Below are positions 1-12,558 of a DNA stretch of 12,558 nt, piece by piece. This DNA is from Coleofasciculaceae cyanobacterium bin_20. GTDB lineage: Bacteria > Cyanobacteriota > Cyanobacteriia > B231. The position numbers and the translations under genes were made by a program. Every line of letters starts with the position of its first letter. Position 1 is the stretch's first letter. The notes under the pieces were generated by a model. It did no database searches. It was not told the origin of the DNA and worked only from the letters and a program-made list of their open reading frames with translations. The DNA lies in assembly GCA_037445115.1 (NCBI GenBank), contig JBBILC010000141.1:1-12558 (forward strand), in the 5' to 3' direction.

Positions 1-1
1 G

Positions 2-29
2 TCCCTCTCCCGTCCTGGGAGAGGGATTT
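2..29 (+). terminator. Perfect 10-bp GC-rich hairpin: tccctctccc (2-11) pairs with gggagaggga (17-26), loop gtcct, followed by ttta. Possible terminator of a gene left of the window, or part of the adjacent repeat element.
   Basis: Inverted repeat read directly from the sequence. The T-tract is only 3 nt, so the terminator call is weak. Confidence 0.25.
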
Positions 30-64
30 AGGGTGAGGTAGCAAAAGTGGGATGCACCCGATCT

Positions 65-181
65 GATGTGCTGGAAGGATCTTGGGGCAATCTAATTTGT
101 TAGAAATGGGCAGGTTTATCTGGATGGCTGGTTTGTGGTCCAGGTTTTGGGACAACCCACCCCTACATTAATGTTTTTGGG
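65..181. repeat. Left copy of a ~100-bp dispersed repeat element (ttggggcaatctaatttgttagaaatgggcaggtttatctggatggctggtttgtggtccaggttttgggacaacccacccctaca...). Direct repeat of 7323-7419.
   Basis: Manual alignment of 82-181 with 7323-7419 gives roughly 80% identity over ~100 bp in the same orientation. Shared blocks are ttggggcaa(t/c)ctaattt(g/t)ttagaaatgg.c.ggtttatc..gatggctggt.tgtggtccag.tttg...caaccc.cccctaca. Confidence 0.75.
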
Positions 182-489
182 CACTTCGAATAATTGCCTT
201 ATTGCGAAAATCAAGCACGCTATACCAGGCCATGCTCAATAAGCACCCCTATTTTTCGATGTGCCCTTATTATGACTAACACGATCGCGGTTAATTACAG
301 GGGTACTCACATCTCTGTCTCTTTTTCGGTGACCAGTAGTCAACCCCCTAATAAGTCCATGCCACAGCAACCTAACGGCAAAAGTGAGCGGCGGCAGATA
401 ACACCGAACACCCACAGATAACCCTTGTGCCGTCCACACCAACGCAATGTTAGCTGGCTCGAGACAAAGACATTGCTGACTCAGAAGCG

Positions 490-512
490 TAAAATAGTAG
501 GAGTAGCAAGGA
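490..512 (+). promoter_or_regulatory. Candidate -10 box TAAAAT (490-495) and Shine-Dalgarno-like aagga (508-512, 8 nt before the ATG at 521) for the antitoxin-toxin operon.
   Basis: Sequence motifs only. No convincing -35 at 17-bp spacing. Confidence 0.3.
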
Positions 513-520
513 ATTTAGCC

Positions 521-766
521 ATGAGCGTCGTTGTCCCTGATGAGATTTTAACCGCAACCCGCATGACTGAGGCTGAAATGCGTCAGGAAATTGCTGTCAT
601 GCTCTTTCAGCGCGAAAAGCTTACCCTTGCTCAAGCCAGTCGTTTTGCAGGAATACATCGTGTTGCCTTTCAACACCTACTCGCTAGTCGCTACATCCCA
701 GTACATTACGGAGTAGAGGATTTCGAGCAGGACATTCAAAATTTGCGGGAGATGGGCAGATTGTGA
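521..766 (+). CDS. UPF0175-family antitoxin, 81 aa (MSVVVPDEILTATRMTEAEMRQEIAVMLFQREKLTLAQASRFAGIHRVAFQHLLASRYIPVHYGVEDFEQDIQNLREMG). The ORF-track start at 425 is probably an upstream extension; the true start is likely the ATG at 521.
   Basis: Typical UPF0175 length and motif pattern (IPDEIL..., SLGKAAELAG-like helix-turn-helix segment, C-terminal EDLxxDLxxL). In-frame ATG at 521 with an RBS-like aagga. Sits immediately upstream of, and overlapping, a DUF3368 gene, which is the canonical pairing. Confidence 0.85.
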   Translation: MSVVVPDEILTATRMTEAEMRQEIAVMLFQREKLTLAQASRFAGIHRVAFQHLLASRYIPVHYGVEDFEQDIQNLREMGRL

Positions 767-1260
767 TTATTGTCAGTGACACATCATCTATCAACAACCT
801 TGCTGCAATCAATCACCTTCATCTTCTTAATCAACTCTATGGAACGGTTTTTATTCCCGAAGCCGTTTATCGAGAATTAACTGACCCAAATTTTCCTGTT
901 GCAGGGGCGACTGAAGTACAAACCTTTGACTGGATTCAAACTCGCGCTGTTAGCGATCGTACCCTTGTCGAAGTACTAAACAACGAACTTGATATTGGAG
1001 AGTCCGAGGCGATTGCCTTAGCCGTGGAGATTCAAGCTGATCAAGTTTTGATTGATGAACGTCGCGGTCGGCTAGTCGCAAGTAGGTTGAGTCTGCGCTA
1101 CATAGGTATCCTAGGAATTTTAGTCGAAGCAAAAAGTCAAGGCTTAATTGGTGGAGTAAAACCTTTATTGGATGCATTGCTTAATGAGGCTGGATTTTGG
1201 GTTGCAGAACCTTTGTACAACAGTGTTTTGCACCTTGTTAATGAGATCGACCTACCTTGA
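763..1260 (+). CDS. DUF3368-family PIN-like putative ribonuclease toxin, 165 aa. GTG start overlapping the antitoxin stop (GTGA at 763-766).
   Basis: The N-terminus MIIVSDTSSINNLAAINHLHLLNQLYGTVFIPEAVYREL matches the DUF3368/PIN-like pattern (hhhhDsSxLI.LakIgrLdLL..L...vhIP.aVy.E). Translational coupling to the UPF0175 gene. Confidence 0.85.
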   Translation: MIIVSDTSSINNLAAINHLHLLNQLYGTVFIPEAVYRELTDPNFPVAGATEVQTFDWIQTRAVSDRTLVEVLNNELDIGESEAIALAVEIQADQVLIDERRGRLVASRLSLRYIGILGILVEAKSQGLIGGVKPLLDALLNEAGFWVAEPLYNSVLHLVNEIDLP

Positions 1261-1509
1261 TCTTTTCTGGGTAACTGGTAAGCGTTTGGGATACTCCGCA
1301 GACAGGATAGAGCGAGATAACGACCAAGCTCACCGGACGCAGATAACTTTTGCCACTCAACCGATCACATTAAGGCGTTCCGGTGCAGCGACTTGTTATA
1401 CCGCTTACTCAGACCGAGTGTGCTCATAGATATTAGAGAGAAACTACTCAACCCTGGATTAGAGCATAGCTTCACGTACTTTAGAGTAGGTCTCATAGTT
1501 ATAAAACAG

Positions 1510-4500
1510 CTATACTGAAACGCTCGGAGAAATAGGCGTCACAAAGTCGTCTCGCATTTGATATGCAGCGGAAGAACCTGTCTCAACAAGCTGGTCGAGA
1601 ATATATAGAACCGCTTCTCGAACGCTACGATTTGATTTAAGTTGAAGCGGTTCCCCATAGACAAAGCGACGAAGCAAGACTTCAAGGTAGTAAGTAGTGG
1701 TCGAATCAGTCAGAGCTTGAGAAGCGTCTCCTGTCTTCAATCGCTCAGCTACCAATGTAAAACTTTTTGGAAGTGCTCTTTCGCCAACATGATAGAGAAA
1801 TCGGCAATAAGCTTTGAATGCAGCCGATGTCGCAGGAATACTTTTCACCAGGTTTTCTATGCGGTTCTCTTGATCCCTGAGACGTGGCCAGTATCGTACT
1901 TTATCTTTCCAGGATATTCCTAATAGTAGTTTACTCAGAAGTTGTGATGCGCTACTCGCCGTCGCATATCGTTCGTCTAACTTGCCATTCCATTTGGCAT
2001 TAGCAAAGTGGTCAGCAAAATTTTGCCAAATCTCCCAGAAGGGAGATTCACGTTCCAACTTATCTTCCTCGTAAATGAGTGCTTCAACAAACTCGCTAAC
2101 TTCCTTTGGATGGGTTTCGACAGATTGAAGGATAGGTTGATAAATTACAATCGCATGCTCAGCATCTAACTTAAGTGCAAATCTAGCGATCTGTTTTGTA
2201 AACCAAAGCTCGAACTCGAAGTCTCTATGATTATTACTATATTGGTCATGGTTATCTCTTTCCCAATCTTGAGTAAGGGCATAAGCTACTCGCTCATATA
2301 TCCTTGCCGCAGACTCGGATGTTGTCAGATAACTCAGTATCTGAAGAATGAAGCGTATCTGAAATCGCACATATCCTTGCAGGGGGTCCAAATTGCGTAA
2401 TTCATTTTCGGCGTCTATCTCTCCAGAAACTATGTCCTTTCTTATCTCTAATGCGGCCCTCTGAAACAACTCATAACCAGAGAGTTGTGCCTCATAGGGC
2501 ATTTCTTGTTGTTTTTCTCTAAGTTCCTCTGCAAGTCGTGCTTGTTTAGCTAAAGCGCCGACATAGCGCATAACAAAGTCAGGCTCAGTCTCTCCCAAGT
2601 AGTATCCCAACCCTGCTGCTGCATACTCTCTGATCTCAGTGACCGAATGGGTAAGGGCAGTAGCTGTTGCAGCAATCAGCACGTCACCAGACTTATCCAC
2701 GCCTAATTTTTGTATAGCGCACGGCAGGGTATAAGCTGCAGAACCGCCACCGCTGCCTCCAAGAACAGCATGGTGATCACTTCCGTCGTGCTTCTCAACT
2801 TCTGCGATTAACCTATCAACACACCAAGAACGATCATCGCTGTTCATTTCATCCCAATAATCTCTTATGCACACTGAAGCTAGCAATCCCGATCCACCTT
2901 GGCTTAAATCAAAAGGATTTTGCGTTTCTTCTCTGCTATCTTGCGCTTCTGAATCATGGAGCTTGGCAAGAGAGAGCATTTCTTGCCAGGACTGTGAATC
3001 ATTATCTAGATTTCTGTCCCAGGCGGCTTGTCCCCAAAGCCAAAGAGAGAGCACTTTTGTATGCTGAGCTTGCTGTTCAGAATTGCTATCGACTATTTCC
3101 TGTACATCCGGCTCTATTGCACCCAAGCTTATAGAGAAGTAGCGTCGCGTATCTTCTTCTGATCCCGATGGTGTTGTGTTGACTGTCACTTCCTCGCCTA
3201 ATTGGAAGCCTCGGACATCCATACGATGAAGCGCCAGCCTCCAGACAAGGTCTCCCTCTGATTGATCTTCCAGAGGTGGCAAATTTGCCCGGTGCTGATC
3301 AATGATTTGCCACACTTCCTCACATCTATCCCCAAGTTGAAGGTTGATCGCAAGGGATTCGAGATTACTCTTTCTATGGGGAAGAGCGCCCGACTCAATT
3401 CGCTCATGGTCATAAGCCTTACCCATAGGCTGCAAGGAGGGCATGAGCTTTTCGATGCTGAAATTATTCGCTTGATCATGAACCATTCGGCTACGGTCAA
3501 GGTCGATAATATCTTGAGTAGAAAGCAGTGCGAGTCCTGCACGACCACACTTGTCTGGATGTGCAATACAAACACTGGCGACAACTGCTGTCACTGCGAC
3601 ATTGTTGCTGTCTTGCAGCAACTTAAGAAGCCAGGACTCAAGATTTACATCCTCAAGCTTAGCGATTTCGAGGAGCCAATGTTCGAGCGCCATCAATGCA
3701 GACTGTAAAACATAAGGAGCTACAGAGGTACCTCGGTATATAGCGTAGAGACGCCCGTTAGCCCACTGTGAGATAGGTTGGCTTTCCTCTGGTATATTCA
3801 GTTCGACTTGCCATGCTGGTTCCAGCGGATCAAATGGCCACTTTTGTTCGCCGTACCAAGAGCAAGCATGGTTTATCAGAGTAGTGATAAAGTCAACACC
3901 GATACGGGGATGCGATCGCAAAAGAGCCCAGAATGGTCCCCGAATAGCACTTGCTGGAACTGAGAATTTGTGTGCTACGTGTTGCCGAATGCCGAAGTGT
4001 GAATCGATATTCAATGACCAGTGGTGGCGATACCCGTGCTCCCGGATTCTCTGAAGATCTTCGTCGGTAAGACAAAAGTAAGACATTGCAAGATCTATGA
4101 TCTCTTCTGGGAAGTCACGACAGGCAAAAGTTCCGCTGCTTTCGGTTAAAAGTAGATCTGCAAAGTCTTTAGCTACGTCATCGTGGTTATTTGCTGATTT
4201 GGCTCGACGCAAGATGTTTCTAAATGTATCAGCAGCAGAGTTTGGTATTTTGGCAAAAATTTCCAGCGCTCGCTTTCTCAAATCCCTTGAGTTATAGCCG
4301 TTTAGATCATCAAGAAGCCGAGCAATGATTTTGCCAGCATCCTTATATCCTTCTGGCTGAGGTTTCCAGTAAGCAACTTGTTGTGACCAGTCTTCTACCA
4401 ATCCCAGAACTATTCCGAAGTGCTCAGGTAGCAATTTTTCTAACTCTTCGCTGACGATTTTTAGTACCGGAGACCAAGCAGTTCCTGTGGGAACAAGAAG

Positions 4501-6639
4501 TTGTGATGTAAGCCCACGTTGATTAGGAAACAAGTCGTGAGCAGTTTTGCAGGCAACGCGAAGTAAATGAATAACACGGATCAACAGTTCTGCATCATGT
4601 GCAAGAAGTACAGCTCCGTTACGAAGCAGAAAGTCATTGGCGGAGGAAGACAGAAGTGTGCATATGATTGTGTCGTCCCGAAAATGGGCCGGAAGAGTGT
4701 CATCTTGGAAAGCAGATAAGATGAAGGTATCTGCACTCTCTAACTCAAGCCTTAGTGCCTCGCCAAGCCACTTTCTATAACCTCGCCGGAGGGCTGGATA
4801 TCCCCCGATATCCTCTGCAAATCCTGCTGCTTCGCCTTCATTAATAACAAATTGACCATGTAGCCAATGTATAGTCGCCCAGTCCTCCAAAACATCATGT
4901 GCAGGAGCAGCTAGTGACTGGCTGTCCTCGGAGAACGCCACCAAGCCATCCCTATGTAAGGCTTCCAACACATTGGCGTCAAAGTTATCACATCGAACAT
5001 ACGGACGAAGTTCTTTAGCCCTTTGTAAAGAAAGCTGCAAGAATACCTGTTCTCTTTTACGAGGCATACCATCAGCAGCATCTACATCAGAGCGGATTAT
5101 CTCACTCCAGCACCTATCTCTAAATTCCTTTTCATTATCCGGTAACTGTCCTTCCGACCAATTAATCCGAGCAGCTATATCTAAAAAATATGGTGAGCGA
5201 ATCAGCTTTTTGAGGTTTGGATTCTGAACCGCTACAGCAATCTGGGGAATTTCTTGCGCGACTTGGTCTAGCTCTTCATCTGTAAAAGGACGAACATCGA
5301 TCAGCTCATATTGGAGAGCGACCTGTTCTAGCAAAGATATTTTTACCGTATCTATGGAGTAGTCACGGCAAGTGAGTATTAAACGAAGATTTTGATCCTG
5401 TCTTACAAGCCGCAAGAGATCCATAAATGCTTTTCGCTCTGACGACTCAAGTAAGCGCTCTACACTCTCGATGAGAATGAACTTTCTCCCTTGAGCCGAT
5501 AATAGACTCAACAATCTGTTTGCTGTCAATGAATCTTGAATCGCTTGTAGAGACTGGTCTATATGGCTACTGGCAAATTCTTCAGCTCGAAAGACTAAAC
5601 AGAAACAGTTCTCTTTAATTTGCTCAACTACGTTTTTTGCTACTGCTGACTTTCCATAACCTGCTGGTCCATTGATGAGAGTGACTTGTGTCGCTTCTAG
5701 TGAATCAAGAATTTTAGTCTCTAGAATCTCTCGCCGAACTTTGATATGACTAGCAATAGTAGTATTGATGCCATCCAGTGTTACTAAACTGTGATCGAGA
5801 AGTTGTCTTAAAAGTCCGCCAGATCGAGGTGCTAAAGCAGAGTGACGTTGACGCAAAACCTCTGGTAGGTTGTTATGTCTATAGCTGCCTGCCGCTGGCA
5901 TTCCGTCAGACCCACCAACTATTTGAAGGAGATCGCTCCAAGTAGATTCTGCTGCTGCAAACGGATCAGGTTCGCTTGAGCAGAAAGCAAGCAGGTTTTT
6001 TGTCCACGCCTCTTGCTGAGCAGTTTTTGTAGTGAGGTCTAAGCTGATTACATGTAGAACACACAAGAAGCGCCAGAAGTCGTCAGCATTAATAGTTGTC
6101 GCAAAACTCTTCTCCAGAATACTTTGGATGGTTTCTGCTTGCTTCCGGGCGGTTTTAGAAAGAAGACCGTCTATTTTAATCCGCCGTTCGAAGTCTGAAC
6201 CATCAACAGAAGCCCGTGCAAAGTCTAATAAGCTGCCAAATTTGTCCAGCAATAAGTTGGTTCCTTGAAGCGTAATGAGAGCGAGTCGATCAGTCTCAGG
6301 GGAGAAGTTGGCCGAATTCTTGAAATCTTGCCAAAAATCAGCAAACGCCTTTTGACACGCATCGTTTTCACTGCTGATAGTGAAACTCCGTTTTACTTGT
6401 GCAGCAAGATGGCGATACTGGCCTCCACCTTTATTGCCTACAACCAATACATCGTCAGTCTGCCAGCCGAGATGCTCAGTCTGAAAATGCACTTCTTCGA
6501 CTTGGCAATCTTTTAAGATAGGGGGAATACCTCTAACAAGCAATAATGCAAGAAACTGTGCTCCAACGTGCTGCTCAAAAAACGTACCGCTTCCGCCTGT
6601 GGCAATCGGACTTGATACTGCTTGCTTTTTGCTACTCAT
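1510..6639 (-). CDS. Giant 1709-aa multidomain protein with three recognisable parts. Residues ~15-90 form an N-terminal Mrr-like PD-(D/E)xK nuclease domain: FE at 21-22, TDD at 61-63, QVK at 81-83. Residues ~310-560 form a central STAND-type P-loop NTPase: Walker A GPAGYGKS at 324-331, Walker B-like FILIESVE at 387-394, sensor-1-like LILTCR at 420-425. The C-terminal ~1150 aa are unassigned and look helical. Candidate Avs/AVAST-like antiphage NLR-like protein.
   Basis: Single uninterrupted ORF of 5130 nt. Nuclease and NTPase motifs were read from the translation; Walker A maps to nt 5647-5670. The nuclease-NTPase-sensor order matches Avs-type antiviral STAND proteins. It lies in a compositionally foreign block next to a TA pair and a recombinase remnant. 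Confidence 0.85.
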   Translation of the reverse strand: MSSKKQAVSSPIATGGSGTFFEQHVGAQFLALLLVRGIPPILKDCQVEEVHFQTEHLGWQTDDVLVVGNKGGGQYRHLAAQVKRSFTISSENDACQKAFADFWQDFKNSANFSPETDRLALITLQGTNLLLDKFGSLLDFARASVDGSDFERRIKIDGLLSKTARKQAETIQSILEKSFATTINADDFWRFLCVLHVISLDLTTKTAQQEAWTKNLLAFCSSEPDPFAAAESTWSDLLQIVGGSDGMPAAGSYRHNNLPEVLRQRHSALAPRSGGLLRQLLDHSLVTLDGINTTIASHIKVRREILETKILDSLEATQVTLINGPAGYGKSAVAKNVVEQIKENCFCLVFRAEEFASSHIDQSLQAIQDSLTANRLLSLLSAQGRKFILIESVERLLESSERKAFMDLLRLVRQDQNLRLILTCRDYSIDTVKISLLEQVALQYELIDVRPFTDEELDQVAQEIPQIAVAVQNPNLKKLIRSPYFLDIAARINWSEGQLPDNEKEFRDRCWSEIIRSDVDAADGMPRKREQVFLQLSLQRAKELRPYVRCDNFDANVLEALHRDGLVAFSEDSQSLAAPAHDVLEDWATIHWLHGQFVINEGEAAGFAEDIGGYPALRRGYRKWLGEALRLELESADTFILSAFQDDTLPAHFRDDTIICTLLSSSANDFLLRNGAVLLAHDAELLIRVIHLLRVACKTAHDLFPNQRGLTSQLLVPTGTAWSPVLKIVSEELEKLLPEHFGIVLGLVEDWSQQVAYWKPQPEGYKDAGKIIARLLDDLNGYNSRDLRKRALEIFAKIPNSAADTFRNILRRAKSANNHDDVAKDFADLLLTESSGTFACRDFPEEIIDLAMSYFCLTDEDLQRIREHGYRHHWSLNIDSHFGIRQHVAHKFSVPASAIRGPFWALLRSHPRIGVDFITTLINHACSWYGEQKWPFDPLEPAWQVELNIPEESQPISQWANGRLYAIYRGTSVAPYVLQSALMALEHWLLEIAKLEDVNLESWLLKLLQDSNNVAVTAVVASVCIAHPDKCGRAGLALLSTQDIIDLDRSRMVHDQANNFSIEKLMPSLQPMGKAYDHERIESGALPHRKSNLESLAINLQLGDRCEEVWQIIDQHRANLPPLEDQSEGDLVWRLALHRMDVRGFQLGEEVTVNTTPSGSEEDTRRYFSISLGAIEPDVQEIVDSNSEQQAQHTKVLSLWLWGQAAWDRNLDNDSQSWQEMLSLAKLHDSEAQDSREETQNPFDLSQGGSGLLASVCIRDYWDEMNSDDRSWCVDRLIAEVEKHDGSDHHAVLGGSGGGSAAYTLPCAIQKLGVDKSGDVLIAATATALTHSVTEIREYAAAGLGYYLGETEPDFVMRYVGALAKQARLAEELREKQQEMPYEAQLSGYELFQRAALEIRKDIVSGEIDAENELRNLDPLQGYVRFQIRFILQILSYLTTSESAARIYERVAYALTQDWERDNHDQYSNNHRDFEFELWFTKQIARFALKLDAEHAIVIYQPILQSVETHPKEVSEFVEALIYEEDKLERESPFWEIWQNFADHFANAKWNGKLDERYATASSASQLLSKLLLGISWKDKVRYWPRLRDQENRIENLVKSIPATSAAFKAYCRFLYHVGERALPKSFTLVAERLKTGDASQALTDSTTTYYLEVLLRRFVYGEPLQLKSNRSVREAVLYILDQLVETGSSAAYQMRDDFVTPISPSVSV

Positions 6640-6850
6640 CAGCGATTTCTATCTAGAGCGTATGGTGTTTGATGTGTTTTGTCTAAGAGCTTCAACTATT
6701 TTAAGCAACCAAGCTGCACCGAGTGATCTTGATGAACTGGTGTGACTCAACAGGTAGGCGGTATAACTATGTATTCAACGTCAGATCTGATGGATAAGCC
6801 CGGATATCAGGATCTTATCATGCAGATCCGCGTGATAATACCTGGTTCTG

Positions 6851-6993
6851 GGGTGTTATTTATCAAAGTTAATGTTTTAAGTCCGAGATTTCAGGGTGTT
6901 ATCCGTCACTTTTGACGTTTAAGTTGGGGAAATTGGGGTGTTATCCGTCACTTTTAAATGATAACACCCGGATTCAGGGTGTTATCCGTCATT
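6851..6993. repeat. Phased array of GGGTGTTAT(C) repeats. Direct copies at 6851-6864 (degenerate: gggtgttatttatc), 6894-6913, 6936-6955 and 6977-6993, spaced 41-43 bp. One inverted copy gataacaccc at 6960-6969 forms a 9-bp inverted repeat with the 6936 copy (GGTGTTATC-14 bp-GATAACACC). Candidate recombinase-binding attI-like site or operator array.
   Basis: Exact 17-20 bp matches read in the sequence (gggtgttatccgtcactttt twice, gggtgttatccgtcatt once). Spacing is about 4 helical turns. Located immediately upstream of the IntI-like fragment and upstream of, and divergent from, the giant minus-strand gene. Confidence 0.8.
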
Positions 6994-6998
6994 GCCTT

Positions 6999-7292
6999 GT
7001 GCTGGACAGTCAGCCACCGCCACCGCCACCCCGCCTGCTGGATCAGGTCAGGCAAGCCATTCGCCTTAAGCACTTCAGCTTAAAGACCAAAAAGTCCTAC
7101 GTTTACTACATCCGCGACTTCATCCTGTTTCACGGCAAACGCCATCCTAAGGACATGGGGGCAGATGAGATCTGGGCCTACCTGGCGCATCTAGCTGTTG
7201 AACGCTCCGTTGCCGCCTCCATGCAAACAGTCGCCCTGAGTGCCTTGCTGTTTCTTTACCGTCAAGTCTTGCAGGGTGATCCCCCCTTTTGT
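6999..7292 (+). pseudogene. Truncated tyrosine recombinase. Only the N-terminal SAM-like/core-binding domain of an integron-integrase (IntI)-like protein is present. Homology stops at ~7290, where the dispersed repeat begins, and the catalytic domain is absent.
   Basis: From memory, the translation LLDQVRQAIRLKHFSLKTKKSYVYYIRDFILFHGKRHPKDMGADEIWAYLAHLAVERSVAASMQTVALSALLFLYRQVLQGD aligns without gaps to the IntI1 N-terminus [82 protein letters not shown]. A proline-rich stretch preceding LDQ is present in both. The likely start is the in-frame GTG at 6999. The ORF-track ATG at 6912 would run through the repeat array. Downstream of 7290 the ORF continues in frame through the repeat element, which I take to be coincidental. 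Confidence 0.7.
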
Positions 7293-7419
7293 TATCGAGA
7301 TAGCTGGTCTGCGGTCCAGATTTTGGGGCAACCTAATTTTTTAGAAATGGACGGGTTTATCGAGATGGCTGGTCTGTGGTCCAGATTTTGCTGCAACCCG
7401 CCCCTACAACAATTTTGGG
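7293..7419. repeat. Right copy of the ~100-bp dispersed repeat (7323-7419), preceded by an internal tandem partial duplication: 7293-7332 atcgagatagctggtctgcggtccagattttggggcaacc is nearly identical to 7359-7398 atcgagatggctggtctgtggtccagattttgctgcaacc.
   Basis: Manual alignment with 65-181 and internal self-alignment. It sits exactly at the boundary between the AT-rich island and HIP1-rich DNA, and abuts the 3' end of the 7440-7922 gene. Confidence 0.75.
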
Positions 7420-7439
7420 TATTCCTGTCGTCGGATGCT

Positions 7440-7922
7440 TTAGAGTTTATAACCAATTTGGCGGAGGAGCGATCGCCGGGATTCAATATCAGCGGGAGCC
7501 TCAACACCCTGCGGTGAGGCTCCATCAATCACACCTAAAATGCCGCGTCCTTGGTTGGTCTCAGCAATAATTACCTGGACGGGATTGGCCGTTGCGCAGT
7601 AGATAGAGCAAACCTCTGGGCACTGTTTAATGCCATTGAGAAAGTTGATGGGATAGGCATCCTTGAGCAGAATAATAAAGCTGTGACCGGCCCCGATCGC
7701 TTGGGCATTGGCGATCGCGGCTGCCTGCAACCCCTCATCATTCCCCACCGCGCGAATTAAACAGGGACCCGATGCCTCGCAAAAGGCTAAACCAAACTTA
7801 ACCTGGGAAGAAGTCCCTACCAAAACTTCATAAAGATCTTCAACAGTTTTAATAAAATGGCTTTGGCCCAGGATGAGATTACTTCCCTCTGGCACGGTGA
7901 GGTCAACGGTGTGAAGTTCCAT
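7440..7922 (-). CDS. 160-aa conserved protein, probably of the adenosine-specific kinase family (PF04008/DUF355-like; typical of cyanobacteria and archaea).
   Basis: Clean 160-aa ORF with native-like composition, including HIP1 sites. The length and motifs (GQSHFIKTVEDL, IGAGHSF, CATANPVQVI, GRGILGV) fit my recollection of that family, which I could not verify. Confidence 0.55.
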   Translation of the reverse strand: MELHTVDLTVPEGSNLILGQSHFIKTVEDLYEVLVGTSSQVKFGLAFCEASGPCLIRAVGNDEGLQAAAIANAQAIGAGHSFIILLKDAYPINFLNGIKQCPEVCSIYCATANPVQVIIAETNQGRGILGVIDGASPQGVEAPADIESRRSLLRQIGYKL

Positions 7923-8033
7923 TGCGAGGTCCTTAATATTATTGGATATTTTATATCAGCATTGTATCCCGGCTTGCTGCTGGACTTTCACCCCCATCTG
8001 CTGGACATAAAAACTGCTTCCTTTGACGCCTCC

Positions 8034-8093
8034 TTGGCCCAGATTTGATCCAGCTTTAATCCAGTTTTGGCCCAGATTTTGGTCCAGATTACA
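8034..8093. repeat. Five short tandem units of ~11 bp (ttggcccagatttga / tccagctttaa / tccagttttgg / cccagattttgg / tccagattaca) in the divergent intergenic region between the 7440-7922 (-) and 8174-10435 (+) genes. They share the core GGTCCAGATTTTGG with the large dispersed repeat.
   Basis: Read directly. The unit consensus is YCCAGNTTTNR. Confidence 0.6.
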
Positions 8094-8173: not shown

Positions 8174-10435
8174 ATGAAACTGATCCAGAGTCCTTTCCGG
8201 TTGACTTCGCTACGGCAATCGCGGAAGGCTGCTCGTGGTTTAGCATCTGTAGCGGTGTCCATGCTGGCAACCGGGGCGATCGCGGCAACGGCTTCTCTGC
8301 CCTCAGCGTTGGCAACCCCAGACCCTACCCCAACCTTGATCCCAACCCAACCCCAAACGCCACTGCGATCGGGTCAGCCAACCCCATCTACCCAACCGAT
8401 CCAACTGGCGCAACCGGCCCCCAGCCCGGTTATTTACCAGATGGGGGTTGGGGATTTTCTCGGTCCACTCTTTGTCACGGGCATCATCATTGTCGGGGGA
8501 GCTATTTTCTTCTCTTCGATTACCGGCCTGGTGATTATTAGTGAACAGGAAGTCGGGATTATCATCAAAAAGTGGGGGGGGCGCCTTACCCCCGGACATT
8601 TGGTTGCCCTACACGGTGAAGCCGGTATCCAGGCCGATACCCTCGTCCCTGGCTGGCATTGGGGCTATTTCCCCTGGCAATATACGGTGCAAAAGCAGCC
8701 CGTGATTGTGGTACCCCAAGGAGAGATCGCGTTAATTGTGGCGAATGATGGGGTGGCGATTCCACCGGAGCGGATTCTGGGGAAAGTCGTCCCCTGTGAC
8801 AACTTTCAAGATGCCCGCAAGTTTCTCTCCAATGGCGGTGAAAAGGGGCGGCAATTGGACTTTCTCACCGCAGGCACCTACCGCATTAACACAGCCCTTT
8901 TCCAGGTAATCACCTCTGGAAACACGGGAAAGCATGGGGTGAGTGCCGATAAACTGCGGGTCTATTCAGTTCAGTCCGATAAGGTGGGCATTGTCACCAC
9001 CCTCGATGGCCAGCCGATCGAGGCCGGGGAAATTGCCGGTCCAACCGTGCCGGGACATAACAATTTCCAGAATGGCGAAAAGTTTATCCGGGCCAATGGT
9101 CGCCGAGGGTTACAGGAGCAAATCCTGCTGTCCGGTTCCTGGAACTTGAATCCCTGGTTTGCGCAGGTGGAGCAGGTCCCGATGACGGAAATTCCGATCG
9201 GCTATGTGGGCGTTGTGATCTCCTTTGTGGGGAAAGCCCATGAAGATGTCAGTGGTGCGTCCTTTACCCACGGCGATTTGGTCGAGCCAGGGCATAAGGG
9301 CGTTTGGACGGAACCGCTCTATCCCGGTAAGCATCCGATTAACATCCGGGTGATGAAGGTGGAATTGGTGCCCACGACCAATATTGTGCTGAACTGGTCT
9401 GCCCGTACCGAGCGCCATAATTACGATCAAAAACTGGAATCCTTGCAGGTGCGATCGCGGGATGGGTTTGCCTTTGATCTGGAAATTGCCCAGATTATCC
9501 ATGTTGGGGCGTTAGATGCACCTAAGGTGATTTCCCGTGTGGGGTCAATGCAAAATCTGGTGGATCATGTATTAGAACCCACGATCGGTAACTATTTCCG
9601 CAACTCGGCCCAGGATTATACGGTGCTCGACTTTTTGAGTGCTCGGAGTGAGCGGCAAGCGGAAGCGGCTGAATATATTAAAGCCGCCCTGCGTAGCTAC
9701 GATGTGCAAGCGATCGACACGCTGATTGGTGAGATTCAACCTCCCGCCGAACTCATGAAAACCCAGACCGAGCGGAAGATTGCCGAAGAACAGCGCAAGA
9801 CGTTTGAAATGCAACAACAGGCCCAAACCCAGCGACAACAGTTGGTGCGGGAAACGGCCCTCGCCGACATCCAACAGGAGATGGTGAAGTCGGAACAGAG
9901 TGTCAAAATCGCGGCATTGCAAGCCCAAGCCCAGATCAAACAATCGGAAGGACAAGCCGAATCGATCAAATTGCGGGCTGTGGCCGATGCTGAATCCATT
10001 CGGGCTACGGGTCGGGCAAGGGCGGAAAGCTATCATGCTGGGGTACAGGCCCTCGGTGAAAAGGGCTATACCGCAATGCAACTGATGCAGATTATTGGCG
10101 ATCATCAGGTGCGGCTGATTCCCGATGTGTTGGTGGGCAGTAGTAGCAGTGGCAGTCTGGTGGATGGCCTACTCTCGATGATTCTTTGGAACCAGGCGGG
10201 GAAAACACCGGGTAATGGGGGGACACCGCTACCCTCACCGCTACCGTCGCCATCCGACAAGCAACCCTTCAATGGCGTCGCATCGCCGCCGCCCCCTCCT
10301 GCTGCGCCACAGTCGGCCTCACTACCGGCCCCACGACCTGTACCGCCACCGGCCCCACTGCCTGCGCCCCCGCCTGTGCCCCCGCGATCGGTCACTACGG
10401 GTACTGCGTCCCCCGATGACCCCTTTACGTCCTGA
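8174..10435 (+). CDS. SPFH/band-7 flotillin-like membrane protein, 753 aa. The N-terminal signal-like segment is followed by a Pro/Thr-rich linker and a hydrophobic hairpin/TM (FLGPLFVTGIIIVGGAIFFSSITGLVII). Next come the SPFH domain, a Gln/Ala/Glu-rich coiled-coil EA-repeat region, and a C-terminal proline-rich tail.
   Basis: EQEVGIIIKKWGG...LVPGWHW...QPVIVVP resembles the flotillin N-terminal SPFH entry motif. The long AEEQRK...QAQAQIKQSEGQAESIKLRAVADAESIRA coiled-coil is typical of bacterial FloT-like proteins. RBS-like aagg before the ATG. HIP1 sites lie within. Confidence 0.75.
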   Translation: MKLIQSPFRLTSLRQSRKAARGLASVAVSMLATGAIAATASLPSALATPDPTPTLIPTQPQTPLRSGQPTPSTQPIQLAQPAPSPVIYQMGVGDFLGPLFVTGIIIVGGAIFFSSITGLVIISEQEVGIIIKKWGGRLTPGHLVALHGEAGIQADTLVPGWHWGYFPWQYTVQKQPVIVVPQGEIALIVANDGVAIPPERILGKVVPCDNFQDARKFLSNGGEKGRQLDFLTAGTYRINTALFQVITSGNTGKHGVSADKLRVYSVQSDKVGIVTTLDGQPIEAGEIAGPTVPGHNNFQNGEKFIRANGRRGLQEQILLSGSWNLNPWFAQVEQVPMTEIPIGYVGVVISFVGKAHEDVSGASFTHGDLVEPGHKGVWTEPLYPGKHPINIRVMKVELVPTTNIVLNWSARTERHNYDQKLESLQVRSRDGFAFDLEIAQIIHVGALDAPKVISRVGSMQNLVDHVLEPTIGNYFRNSAQDYTVLDFLSARSERQAEAAEYIKAALRSYDVQAIDTLIGEIQPPAELMKTQTERKIAEEQRKTFEMQQQAQTQRQQLVRETALADIQQEMVKSEQSVKIAALQAQAQIKQSEGQAESIKLRAVADAESIRATGRARAESYHAGVQALGEKGYTAMQLMQIIGDHQVRLIPDVLVGSSSSGSLVDGLLSMILWNQAGKTPGNGGTPLPSPLPSPSDKQPFNGVASPPPPPAAPQSASLPAPRPVPPPAPLPAPPPVPPRSVTTGTASPDDPFTS

Positions 10436-10475
10436 TGGCGAGGAGATGACCCTTTTACGTCCTGATGGCGAGGAG
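10416..10475. repeat. Perfect-but-one 30-bp tandem duplication (atgacccctttacgtcctgatggcgaggag / atgacccttttacgtcctgatggcgaggag) straddling the stop codon (TGA 10433-10435) of the flotillin-like gene.
   Basis: Read directly; a single mismatch between units. Confidence 0.85.
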
Positions 10476-10647: not shown

Positions 10648-12519
10648 ATGTCCTATTGCTTTAATCCTGACTGTCCGCAGCCCCAGAATCCCGATGGAAT
10701 TACCCACTGTCAGCAGTGTGGCTGGGCATTGCAATTGCAGGATCGCTATCAAGCGATTAGGTTACTGGGTCAGGGCGGATTTGGGCGCACCTTGCTGGCG
10801 ATCGCGGCTCCAAATGCCACCGATCGCGAACCGTCCGCCTGTGTGATTAAGCAGTTTTTACCCCAGCCCCTCCGTGCGAATCACCAAGACAGGGCACGCA
10901 CCCTGTTTCACCAGGAAGCCCAACGCTTGGCAGAATTAGGCCAGCATCCCCAAATTCCTGATTTTTTCGATTTTTTCCAGGCGGGTGAACAGCTTTATTT
11001 AGTTCAAGAATATATTGCGGGGGTTACCTTAGCGGAGCAACTCGCGACCCAAGGGGTGTTCACAGAAGCCCAAATTTGGCAAGTATTGACTGACCTGTTA
11101 CCCGTCCTCAAGTTTATCCACGATCGCCAGGTGATCCATCGCGATATTAAACCCGAAAATATCATTCGCCCGGTTGCAAACGAGTTAGCCAACGAGTTAG
11201 GCAATAACGCCCCCCTGGTCCTGGTTGATTTTGGCTCTGCCAAGGTGGTTACCCCGATCGCCCAGTTACAAACGGGAACCACGATCGGCAGTGCTGAATA
11301 CGTTGCCCCCGAACAGGCGCGGGGAAAGGCGGTCTTTGCCAGTGATCTCTACAGTTTGGGGGTGACCTGTATTCACCTGCTCACGGGATTGTCTCCCTTT
11401 GATTTGGTAGATAGTGGGCATAATACGTGGGTTTGGCAACAATTTTTGACCACGCCCGTTAGCCCAGAACTGGGTCAAATGCTCGATCGCCTTATTCACC
11501 CAGCCCTAGACCAGCGATTCCCATCCGCAGATGCTGTGATGCAGGCCATGTCGGGATTTGCTCTGATCAATCCCAAGGACGCTCGTAGCCAGAAGTCCCG
11601 CGATCGTGCCTTATCTCAGGCATTGCCGATCAACCTTTCCTGCCCTTGTGAATCTATCCTCCGTGGACATACGGCAGCAGTCAATACCGTAGCAGTCAAT
11701 ACCGTTGCGATGGGTTCTGAGGAGCCATTAATCGTGAGTGGGGGGCAGGATAAAGTGATGCGATTTTGGAACCTAAAAACAGGACAGCCCCTCCAATATT
11801 TCTCTTTGGAGACCCCCATTTTGTCGGTAGCCTTTAGTGCAGATGGGAAACGTTTGGCCGCAGCCGGTCAAGATAACAGGGTGCGCGTATGGTTAGTAGA
11901 AACGCTCCAAGCGTCTTTAACATTAGCTGAACATACCCAATTAGCAGGACATACCCAGGCCGTAAAAGCGATCGCCTTTCATCCGCAATATCCCATTTTA
12001 GCCAGTGGTAGCCGTGATAAAACGATTCGGATTTGGCAGGTTCAGACGAGGGAACTGGTCGCAACCCTGACCCAGCATCGGTTAGCCGTCAATACCCTCG
12101 CCTTTAGCCCGGATGGGGCTTGGTTGGCCAGTGGGGGCAGCGATCACCGGGTTTGTCTGTGGCGCGTTCATGGCGAGGCGGGTAAACCCAGGCTCACCCA
12201 CCACAAAACGTTGACCGATCATGTCGATAGCGTGTTGGCCGTTGCTTTTAGCCCCGATAGCCAAACGTTGGCAACGGGGGGAGACGATCGCACGATTAAA
12301 CTCTGGGATGTGGCGCAGGGTCACCTTCAGCAAACCCTATCGGCCCACTCCTGGTCGGTTTCTGCCCTCAGTTTTAGTCCCATTACAAGCTGTTCATCTG
12401 CCTCTACAGAAAAGCCTTTTTTAATCAGTGGCGGGTGGGATGGGTTACTGAAATTGTGGCCGATCGCGCATACGGAGATACAACCGGCGGCTTTGAGCCT
12501 ATCGGGCCAGAAGTGTTGA
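10648..12519 (+). CDS. Ser/Thr protein kinase, 623 aa, with three parts. An N-terminal zinc-ribbon has the pattern CFNPDC...HCQQCG. The Hanks-type kinase domain carries GQGGFG, VIKQF, HRDIKPENII, DFGSAK and YVAPE. The C-terminal WD40 beta-propeller has repeats ending RFWN, RVWL, IRIWQ, VCLWR, IKLWD and LKLWP.
   Basis: All canonical kinase subdomain motifs are present in order. Multiple WD repeats with GH...WD-like spacing. This architecture is common among cyanobacterial Ser/Thr kinases. Confidence 0.9.
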   Translation: MSYCFNPDCPQPQNPDGITHCQQCGWALQLQDRYQAIRLLGQGGFGRTLLAIAAPNATDREPSACVIKQFLPQPLRANHQDRARTLFHQEAQRLAELGQHPQIPDFFDFFQAGEQLYLVQEYIAGVTLAEQLATQGVFTEAQIWQVLTDLLPVLKFIHDRQVIHRDIKPENIIRPVANELANELGNNAPLVLVDFGSAKVVTPIAQLQTGTTIGSAEYVAPEQARGKAVFASDLYSLGVTCIHLLTGLSPFDLVDSGHNTWVWQQFLTTPVSPELGQMLDRLIHPALDQRFPSADAVMQAMSGFALINPKDARSQKSRDRALSQALPINLSCPCESILRGHTAAVNTVAVNTVAMGSEEPLIVSGGQDKVMRFWNLKTGQPLQYFSLETPILSVAFSADGKRLAAAGQDNRVRVWLVETLQASLTLAEHTQLAGHTQAVKAIAFHPQYPILASGSRDKTIRIWQVQTRELVATLTQHRLAVNTLAFSPDGAWLASGGSDHRVCLWRVHGEAGKPRLTHHKTLTDHVDSVLAVAFSPDSQTLATGGDDRTIKLWDVAQGHLQQTLSAHSWSVSALSFSPITSCSSASTEKPFLISGGWDGLLKLWPIAHTEIQPAALSLSGQKC

Positions 12520-12558
12520 ATCTTAAGATTTTATTTTCTAAAAATAGACACACTAATC

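Follow-up and report, generated by a model that had tools for sequence, protein, structure and literature searches.

What element occupies the left half of a 12,558-nucleotide contig of Coleofasciculaceae cyanobacterium bin_20 (JBBILC010000141.1, assembly GCA_037445115.1), where defence genes lie in a compositionally foreign block between two direct repeats, and how did it come to be there? The window analysed is this whole contig, which extends only 62 nt to the left of the left repeat. The initial annotation had taken the block for a mobile defence island acquired or delimited through its repeats. We consider it highly probable that the interval ~206-7292 is a fragment of a cyanobacterial chromosomal integron that has been displaced into the spacer between recG and an adenosine-specific kinase gene. 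The fragment counts as a CALIN-type cassette cluster, that is one with no working integrase, which still holds its attI site and a 98-codon stub of the integrase gene intI. The parts of the integron, the limits of its cassettes, the empty sites of related genomes and the composition of the block can each be read directly from the data. Read on the minus strand away from intI, the array would consist of attI, a first cassette with an Avs4-like gene, a second cassette with an inversely oriented toxin-antitoxin (TA) pair and a truncated third cassette, the cassettes having presumably been captured one by one through IntI-catalysed attC x attI recombination. For comparison we used related loci including those of a Trichothermofontia sp. 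(L088), the complete genome of Trichothermofontia sichuanensis B231 (L090), a Trichothermofontia integron (L002), the closest metagenome-assembled genome (MAG) and metagenome relatives (L004 and L089) and two metagenomic contigs (L085 and L086).

The affiliation of the block is given by its recombinase. An intI pseudogene at 6999-7292 on the plus strand retains the first 98 codons, begins with GTG and lacks the catalytic domain. The open reading frame (ORF) that contains it (6912-7517) aligns with integron-integrase models only along the first 81-88 positions of these, covering positions 1-81 of 315 in TIGR02249 (E 3.9e-24) with 85.6 bits, below the cut-off of 265, whereas four full-length IntI relatives reach 475-493 bits against the same model. 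The stub is 89 % identical to residues 1-98 of the Trichothermofontia integrase IntI P0002 and its nearest relatives are annotated integron integrases from Trichothermofontia, Chroococcidiopsis and other cyanobacteria. No further intI fragment was found anywhere in the window. The initial annotation had described a recombinase stub with an associated repeat array, its ORF cut exactly at the right repeat. The cut is real, homology to intact integrases ending at 7287-7292 and the repeat starting at 7293, and the recombinase is the N-terminus of an integron integrase, but the array proved to be a conserved attI region.

This attI region (6767-6998, plus strand) contains repeated GGGTGTTATCCGTCA motifs and is conserved directly upstream of intI in seven cyanobacterial integrons, so that the conserved block adjoining intI by which an integron platform is recognised is present in the window. 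Positions 6763-7287 are 89 % identical to attI plus intI of the Trichothermofontia integron L002, the homology running from ~6763 to ~7287-7292. In the seven-integron alignment conservation starts exactly at AAC|TATGTATTCAG (AAC|TATG) and continues rightwards. The contigs L085 and L086, which encode an identical IntI (P0035), share the same sequence to the right of AAC|TATG and differ to the left of it. Since they diverge exactly at this point, it marks the attI crossover, which falls at A6766|C6767 in the window. To the left of attI, one of the two carries a gene for an Hsp70-like protein of 688 amino acids and another for a protein of 381 amino acids (~3.6 kb), the other a SinI restriction enzyme and a DNA methylase; this is direct evidence of cassette turnover, defence cargo included, in a cyanobacterial integron.

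Some further features of these related integrons were observed in passing. The loci compared are L085 1-3900 and L086 1-2170, the right-hand flank being common to both; at the place of their differing cassettes a group II intron reverse transcriptase gene is found in a third contig. Genes of this type lie in or beside cassettes of two cyanobacterial integrons, one of them L084 (4846-6180); they bring to mind the group IIC introns of other integrons, which target attC. In L002 (2946-3898) intI is itself split into a 257-amino-acid and a 60-amino-acid ORF, followed by a helix-turn-helix transposase-like gene, and integrase decay may be common in Trichothermofontia. The idea of a conserved integron locus beside a gene for an FAD-binding (NadB-like) protein was dropped, as the proteins of L002 and L085 are only 28 % identical.

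To identify attC sites we utilized an nhmmer profile and a covariance model, an initial scan for AAC...GTT arm complementarity having failed to separate the attC sites of the window from shuffled sequences. The first profile, built from only four attC-like sites of L002 and L003, found window positions 1317-1406 (E 4.9e-10) and 369-459 (E 0.01). The covariance model (R1) was derived from 10 attC sites of five other cyanobacterial integron loci, included no window sequences and was run with filters off. The RNAalifold consensus of these 10 sites combines an R box (AAC/GTT) with a central spacer that stays unpaired and an L stem whose 3′ arm carries two bulged bases, and compensatory changes occur in 8 of its 16 pairs. 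In the window the model scored two sites as significant, attC_b with 68.4 bits (E 7e-19) and attC_a with 47.3 bits (E 1.4e-12), and both lie on the strand expected. On 195 kb of other loci it found only its 10 training sites and weaker reverse-strand echoes, and it detected no attC in the empty-site loci or beside Avs4 homologs.

attC_b (1312-1406, plus strand, predicted crossover A1320|C1321) is canonical, its single-stranded DNA fold displaying R-box pairing, a central spacer left unpaired and, on the 3′ arm of the L stem, two bulged bases. attC_a (367-460, plus strand, predicted crossover A375|C376) is partly degenerate. In the established geometry of attC sites the extrahelical bases tell which is the recombinogenic bottom strand. 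The position of the bulges on the 3′ arm of the plus strand therefore makes the plus strand the recombinogenic bottom strand, which fits an array read leftwards from intI. The window thereby has the minimum of two attC sites on one strand that defines a CALIN, although the second of its sites is degenerate. A third attC at the left end, where 41-62 resembles attC_a, was rejected as positions 2-59 are a dispersed repeat, and no attC was found in 1-366 using R1 with filters off. The right flanking repeat was likewise rejected as attC-derived; it has a minus-strand R1 match at 7326-7421 that is not significant (8.3 bits, E 0.69), along with a 9-mer, GCAACCTAA, shared with attC_a.

The attI and attC crossovers delimit two complete cassettes, both read on the minus strand. 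Cassette 1 (1321-6766; 5,446 bp) lies in the first position by attI, reaches from the attI crossover to that of attC_b and consists of a single sense ORF and its attC, the leader measuring 127 nt and the distance from stop codon to attC 104 nt. Its ends carry the inverted repeats TTATACCGC (1396-1404) and GCGGTATAA (6758-6766), complementarity that is expected of a unit which circularises through its own attC. Cassette 2 (376-1320; 945 bp) extends between the attC_a and attC_b crossovers and bears its TA pair in the direction opposite to that of the array. The first bases of the cassette, TTATCTCGCT, agree at 9 of 11 positions with the complement of its own R'' box, and a repeat with a spacing of 945 nt, the size of the cassette, was found. 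Both units are therefore compact, each being ORF plus attC with ends complementary around the G|TT crossover and with non-coding margins of 60-127 nt. Beyond the attC_a crossover a non-coding stretch of ~170 bp (206-375), for which blastn returned no match in the related loci compared, may be read from its position and sequence as the truncated start of a third cassette.

The gene of cassette 1 (1510-6639, minus strand) encodes a STAND NTPase of 1709 amino acids. Residues 274-1698 match the NCBIfam Avs4 model NF041815 (E 1.3e-198), with supporting matches to PADLOC Avs4 (E 1.5e-182) and to PDB 8DGF (E 5e-90). Like Avs4 (AVAST type 4, 8DGF) it combines a STAND NTPase with a C-terminal sensor region, the match covering ~1400 residues, but its 662 bits fall short of the NCBIfam equivalog cut-off of 1500 and the Avs4 models leave the N-terminal ~270 residues unmatched. 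Residues 1-290 (5770-6639) are without a Pfam match. An AlphaFold2 model of these residues, made from an alignment of 25 homologs (pLDDT 82.8), matches LmuA 9hr5 (E 1e-6), the Avs3 N-terminus 8dgc and Cap4 6vm5, and the columns invariant across the 25 homologs include E22, H51, D62, D63 and Q81. The protein thus appears, judging from the model, to pair an Avs4-type sensor with a head that resembles the Cap4/LmuA-like PD-(D/E)xK nucleases, a fold also found at this end of Avs3. Its closest Avs4 homologs are no more than 62 % identical and occupy ordinary defence islands beside CBASS or a type IIG restriction-modification-like gene, without attC; no second copy of the Avs4 cassette was found among the loci of these homologs. 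The comparison is consistent with a recruitment of defence genes from islands into cassettes.

Cassette 2 encodes a UPF0175-family antitoxin (521-766, plus strand; PF03683, E 1.3e-23; PADLOC PDC-S70, E 4.6e-5) and a DUF3368 (PIN-like) toxin (763-1260, plus strand; PF11848, E 4.8e-15; PADLOC PDC-S70, E 1e-67). The two small genes overlap by 4 nt, and their adjacency and family membership identify a type II TA pair that corresponds to the PADLOC candidate system PDC-S70. Related integrons share this layout, with cassettes upstream of and divergent from intI that include TA pairs (HepT/MNT, BrnT/BrnA and DUF433/DUF5615), a restriction-modification system and units of 3.3-5.0 kb.

The defence cargo, Avs4-like gene and TA pair, does lie between the two repeat copies as initially annotated. 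Nothing shows the block as a whole to be mobile, however; the potential movers are the single cassettes, given an integrase in trans. The cassettes could still be excised, though only by an integrase so supplied.

The compositional contrast that had set the block apart was confirmed and was found to be confined to the cassettes. GC content is 0.41-0.49 across 1-7000 and 0.51-0.62 farther right. The block at 181-7292 has a GC content of 0.457 compared to 0.534 to its right and 0.52-0.54 in core DNA of the window and related genomes, and none of 62 core 5-kb windows has a GC content < 0.477. Its tetranucleotide profile correlates with that of core DNA at a Pearson r of 0.06-0.21, compared to 0.86-0.92 among core segments. 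The octamer HIP1 occurs at 3912, 7469, 7711, 8276, 9451, 10798 and 11968, seven sites in the window where 0.19 are expected, upholding the earlier count of one in the block and six to its right. The density is 0.14/kb in 181-7292 compared to 0.6-1.2/kb in core DNA, and at ~0.8/kb some 5.7 sites would be expected in 7.1 kb (Poisson P(≤1) ~0.02). The claim that the entire block is AT-rich holds for the cassettes but not for the attI/intI segment (6767-7292), which has a GC content of 0.49, and GC at third codon positions is 0.65 in the intI stub compared to 0.34-0.46 in the cassette genes. AT-rich and HIP1-poor cassettes beside a host-like platform are accounted for by singly captured, imported cassettes and a native platform. 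Related integrons have cassette DNA with a GC content of 0.41-0.44 beside intI at 0.50-0.52; since their cassettes are AT-rich as well, the contrast in the window is the ordinary one between imported cassettes and a resident platform.

The direct repeats that flank the block are better explained as native spacer than as mobile-element termini. The ~80 % repeat initially placed at 82-181 and 7323-7419 was recovered with a slight offset at 63-175 and 7304-7416 (113 nt, 80 % identity; 98 nt, 83.7 % and E 2e-24 by blastn), and comparison with related genomes gives a full extent of ~63-205 and 7293-7439. Each copy has an internal sub-repeat, for example 7293-7334 and 7357-7398 with 90 % identity. 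In L088, L004, L089 and B231 recG and the kinase gene are convergent neighbours separated by 63, 272, 276 and 157 bp, respectively, without an integron. Each of these sites holds one spacer copy, bearing out the prediction of an empty site with a single copy of the repeat. The core conserved among the spacers is a unit of ~70 nt with the invariant inverted arms TAGAAATGGGCGGGTTTAT-N~35-AACCCGCCCCTAC. Sequence comparison identifies the spacer as a putative hairpin unit (GGGCGGGTTT...AAACCCGCCCCTAC) resembling repetitive extragenic palindromic (REP) elements and the direct repeats as two diverged copies of it, native to the interval between recG and the kinase gene. The unit has much in common with REP elements and bacterial interspersed mosaic elements (BIMEs), including its length of ~70 nt, its invariant inverted arms, its place between convergent genes, its single or short tandem occurrence and a copy number that varies between strains, although the spacer repeat is known here from the recG neighbourhood alone.

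The right copy (7293-7439, plus strand) is contiguous with the adenosine-specific kinase gene (7440-7922, minus strand; PF04008, E 1e-76), the first core gene of the right flank, as it is in relatives. The kinase gene, through which these related loci were retrieved, is 90.7 % identical to that of L088, 87 % to those of L004 and L089 and 84 % to that of T. sichuanensis B231. As 7342-7923 aligns in a single block with L004 3256-2683 (83 %), and the region does likewise with L088 (7379-7969, 86 %), L089 and B231 (7320-7922, 80 %), the right copy is the orthologous, kinase-attached spacer. The left copy (63-205, plus strand) comprises a degenerate unit and a hairpin unit, TAGAAATGGGCAGGTTTAT...AACCCACCCCTAC, with two arm mismatches. 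It is 77-89 % identical to the spacers of relatives, the best match (89 %) being the copy directly after recG in the L091-L093 lineage. A remnant of the kinase 3′ end after the left copy was rejected because similarity stops at about the stop-codon position.

In front of the left copy the contig ends in a dispersed hairpin repeat, HR (1-59, plus strand; GTCCCTCTCCC...GGGAGAGGGATTTAGGGTGAGG), which probably caused the contig end at position 1. Copies of HR were found by blastn in related core DNA at L004 11083-11141 (90 %) and 1497-1556, L090 7205-7242 and L091 6120-6157, and HR-type sequence lies just upstream of the spacer repeat in L004 (~3275-3325) and L089.

These relations leave very little room for an integrative defence island whose own recombinase made att-type repeats upon insertion, a reading that we regard as extremely unlikely. 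Direct repeats do flank a foreign block with a tyrosine-recombinase fragment beside one of them. The recombinase is however an integron integrase, which acts on attI and attC rather than on island ends, and its gene points at the repeat and is interrupted there instead of ending before it. The cargo consists of integron cassettes bounded by attC, and the repeats (~110-145 bp, 80 % identity) are native at empty sites and far longer and more diverged than att cores. The window has no tRNA gene or other usual att target, and searches of it for tRNA genes, Rfam families and plasmid or phage matches were negative.

Could the junctions be artefacts of assembly? A chimera in which metagenomic assembly joined an integron contig to a core contig through the shared repeat is suggested by the end of the MAG contig in a dispersed repeat and by the co-assembly ('binchicken') isolate names of related MAGs. 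The copies are only 80 % identical and therefore lack the long exact k-mer that a false join would need. In addition two contigs carry the ORF P0001, which crosses the junction of intI, repeat and kinase gene, the TA gene has the same neighbours on each of two contigs measuring 10-20 kb, and the Avs4 gene is listed also from Logan, an independent assembly collection. We consider a chimera most unlikely.

An integron ancestral at the locus, of which the window would represent in-situ decay and which relatives would have lost by recombination between the spacer copies, is improbable though better founded. A deletion between direct repeats would leave just one copy, which is the state of the relatives, and the 89 % identity of intI/attI to L002, near the 90.7 % of the kinase gene to L088, fits a long residence of the platform in the clade. 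We give it less weight because the spacers of the four relatives differ in structure (63, 157, 272 and 276 bp), so that each would need an independent and precise deletion, and because the related Trichothermofontia integron L002 has a different gene neighbourhood. The truncation of intI exactly at the spacer copy would need a separate event as well.

Displacement of an integron fragment remains our preferred reading, and the question becomes how it arrived. The fragment is truncated on both sides, once within cassette 3 and once at intI codon 98, with a spacer copy adjoining either break. It would have reached the site by a rearrangement that used the recombination-prone hairpin spacer, and the same or a later event would have removed the rest of intI. 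Three routes may be envisaged. The fragment could have inserted into a variable hairpin array, between tandem units already in place; a recombination could have kept both a donor and a resident copy of the spacer; or the fragment could have been translocated by means of dispersed copies of the repeat. The second route would explain the 20 % divergence of the copies together with the likeness of the left copy to the recG side and of the right copy to the kinase side.

The third route has a more specific form, in which dispersed copies related to MITEs (miniature inverted-repeat transposable elements) or REP elements within intI and the array recombined and the product, an 'integron mobilization unit', entered the resident spacer copy homologously. 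Related hairpin units recur near recG in relatives. Just upstream of recG, tandem 83-nt units (GGGCGGGTTTAGCGATC...AACCCGCCCCTAC) are present four times in L091 (1622-1945) and three times in L092 (1500-1735), on the minus strand, an array which by sequence appears to be a variable minisatellite related to the spacer repeat. Synteny breaks right after the repeat in the L091 lineage, and on either side the integron fragment breaks off exactly at a copy of the repeat. There is also a precedent in an Acinetobacter johnsonii integron truncated at both ends by two copies of the same 439-bp MITE (PMC3934969). As in that case our fragment is cut at the intI end and at the array end and lies between two directly oriented short non-coding repeats; here, in contrast, the empty site already has one copy, the copies are 80 % identical and neither terminal inverted repeats nor a target-site duplication are visible.

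The repeat subfamily was moreover not found outside the recG locus in ~66 kb of related-clade DNA sampled. Exact-pattern scans gave no match for GCTGGTNTGNGGTCCAGNTTTTG in 185,579 species genomes or in JGI metagenomes and none for TAGAAATGGRCRGGTTTATNNRGANGGNTGG in JGI metagenomes. The two copies share no identical run longer than ~10 nt and would not lend themselves well to recent homologous recombination. Sites invaded by MITE composites lack a MITE beforehand and acquire short target duplications; with a copy at the empty sites, no visible target-site duplication and no copy found outside the recG locus in the DNA sampled or in the collection scans, the block is neither a MITE-flanked composite nor an integron mobilization unit as these are defined. 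We regard repeat-mediated translocation of this kind as a possible but rather unlikely explanation.

A number of observations weigh against the reading of a displaced integron fragment. The integron-specific C-terminal insertion lies in the deleted part of intI, and the score of the stub is far under the family cut-off. attC_a has several non-canonical L-stem pairs, and its minimum free energy fold misses the site and is no better than shuffles. A search for a cassette promoter (Pc) gave one sigma-70-like match (minus strand, 6985-6958), no more than in shuffled sequences. Measured against the integrons studied so far, a cassette of 5.4 kb is very large; in Vibrio recombination falls with cassette size and a 4-kb cassette was not recovered (10.64898/2026.03.17.712381). 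The left flank consists of only 62 nt of dispersed repeat, so that the linkage of the left end to recG is one we infer rather than see; a search among RecG homologs and cluster members for the recG contig of the same MAG turned up relatives only. Copies of the repeat were counted in ~66 kb of DNA from relatives. At most 6 nt of microhomology, TATCGA, are found at the junction of intI and repeat. The combined proposal that the giant Avs4-type STAND gene (1709 amino acids, with its Cap4/LmuA-like head) forms a genuine single-gene cassette of 5.4 kb and that it was relocated with a piece of the platform through the REP-like hairpin spacer is a tentative one, to which we give slightly less than even weight.

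Integrons in Cyanobacteria, CALINs (attC clusters without an integrase) and intI pseudogenes have been described previously (Cury et al. 2016, IntegronFinder; PMC4889954). The fragment is like chromosomal integrons and CALINs in having at least two attC sites on one strand, cassettes by attI that are divergent from intI and an integrase reduced to a pseudogene. It is unlike CALINs in that attI and the 5′ third of intI are kept and that it has been displaced into a housekeeping intergenic spacer. The IntegronFinder survey (PMC4889954) sought intI pseudogenes through the C-terminal domain, and an N-terminal stub such as this one would therefore be missed; its default clustering distance is 4 kb, while the first attC lies 5.4 kb from attI in the window.

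Phage-defence integron cassettes (BRiCs) were established in 2025 by Kieffer et al., Darracq et al. (Science 388) and Getz et al. (Nat Microbiol). As outlined in these papers, they share with our locus defence genes and TA pairs in the form of attC-bounded cassettes and a defence gene in the first position by attI. The cases that they outline are mostly short and come from Vibrio and mobile integrons, whereas a single STAND/Avs4 gene of 1709 amino acids forms a 5.4-kb cassette in a cyanobacterium here. Among the papers searched, none combines integron, Avs, STAND and cassette. The novelty is the giant Avs4 as a cassette; integrons in cyanobacteria, arrays with decayed integrases and defence cassettes are already known. 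Less usual are the nature and size of this Avs4 cargo and the fact that a piece of the platform has come to lie in a housekeeping spacer.

The surroundings of the spacer show rearrangements of their own. In L091 (4664-6541) and also in L092 and L093, small ORFs and a TauE-family gene, in place of the kinase gene, come after recG and its one spacer repeat, so that the spacer is a synteny break point in this lineage too. A 37-nt stretch with which the Ser/Thr-kinase-WD40 gene ends on its 3′ side (window 12512-12548) shares 92 % identity with L091 4705-4741 (reverse complement), 41 nt downstream of the L091 spacer repeat, and may be another small repeat or the trace of a rearrangement. To the right of the kinase gene the window carries genes for a Band7 protein and for this Ser/Thr-kinase-WD40 protein. 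In L004 (1800-2583) and L089 (3604-4066) both are reduced to fused fragments (Band7 residues 195-276 and WD40 repeats), so that the right flank is unstable in the clade as well. A 30-nt sequence, GATGACCCCTTTACGTCCTGATGGCGAGGA, is duplicated in tandem (perfect to 97 %) at 10415-10474, spanning the Band7 stop codon (10435), and between the kinase and Band7 genes (8021-8090) several short CCAGATTT(T)G motifs echo the loop GGTCCAGATTTTG of the spacer repeat. Lineages of this clade differ in what is inserted at the recG-kinase hairpin spacer, which looks like a minor hotspot of rearrangement.

A concrete anatomy of attI, an intI stub and two attC-bounded cassettes thus replaces the label of a mobile defence island bounded by repeats. 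It adds a cyanobacterial and unusually large STAND-type example to the phage-defence integron cassettes and shows how such arrays can escape detection, having no C-terminal intI domain and an attC beyond the 4-kb clustering distance. If the reading is correct, cyanobacterial integrons would trade NLR-like giant defence genes as cassettes, above the size thought to recombine efficiently, and the mobility of integron fragments via a hairpin spacer would need neither a transposon nor an integrase.

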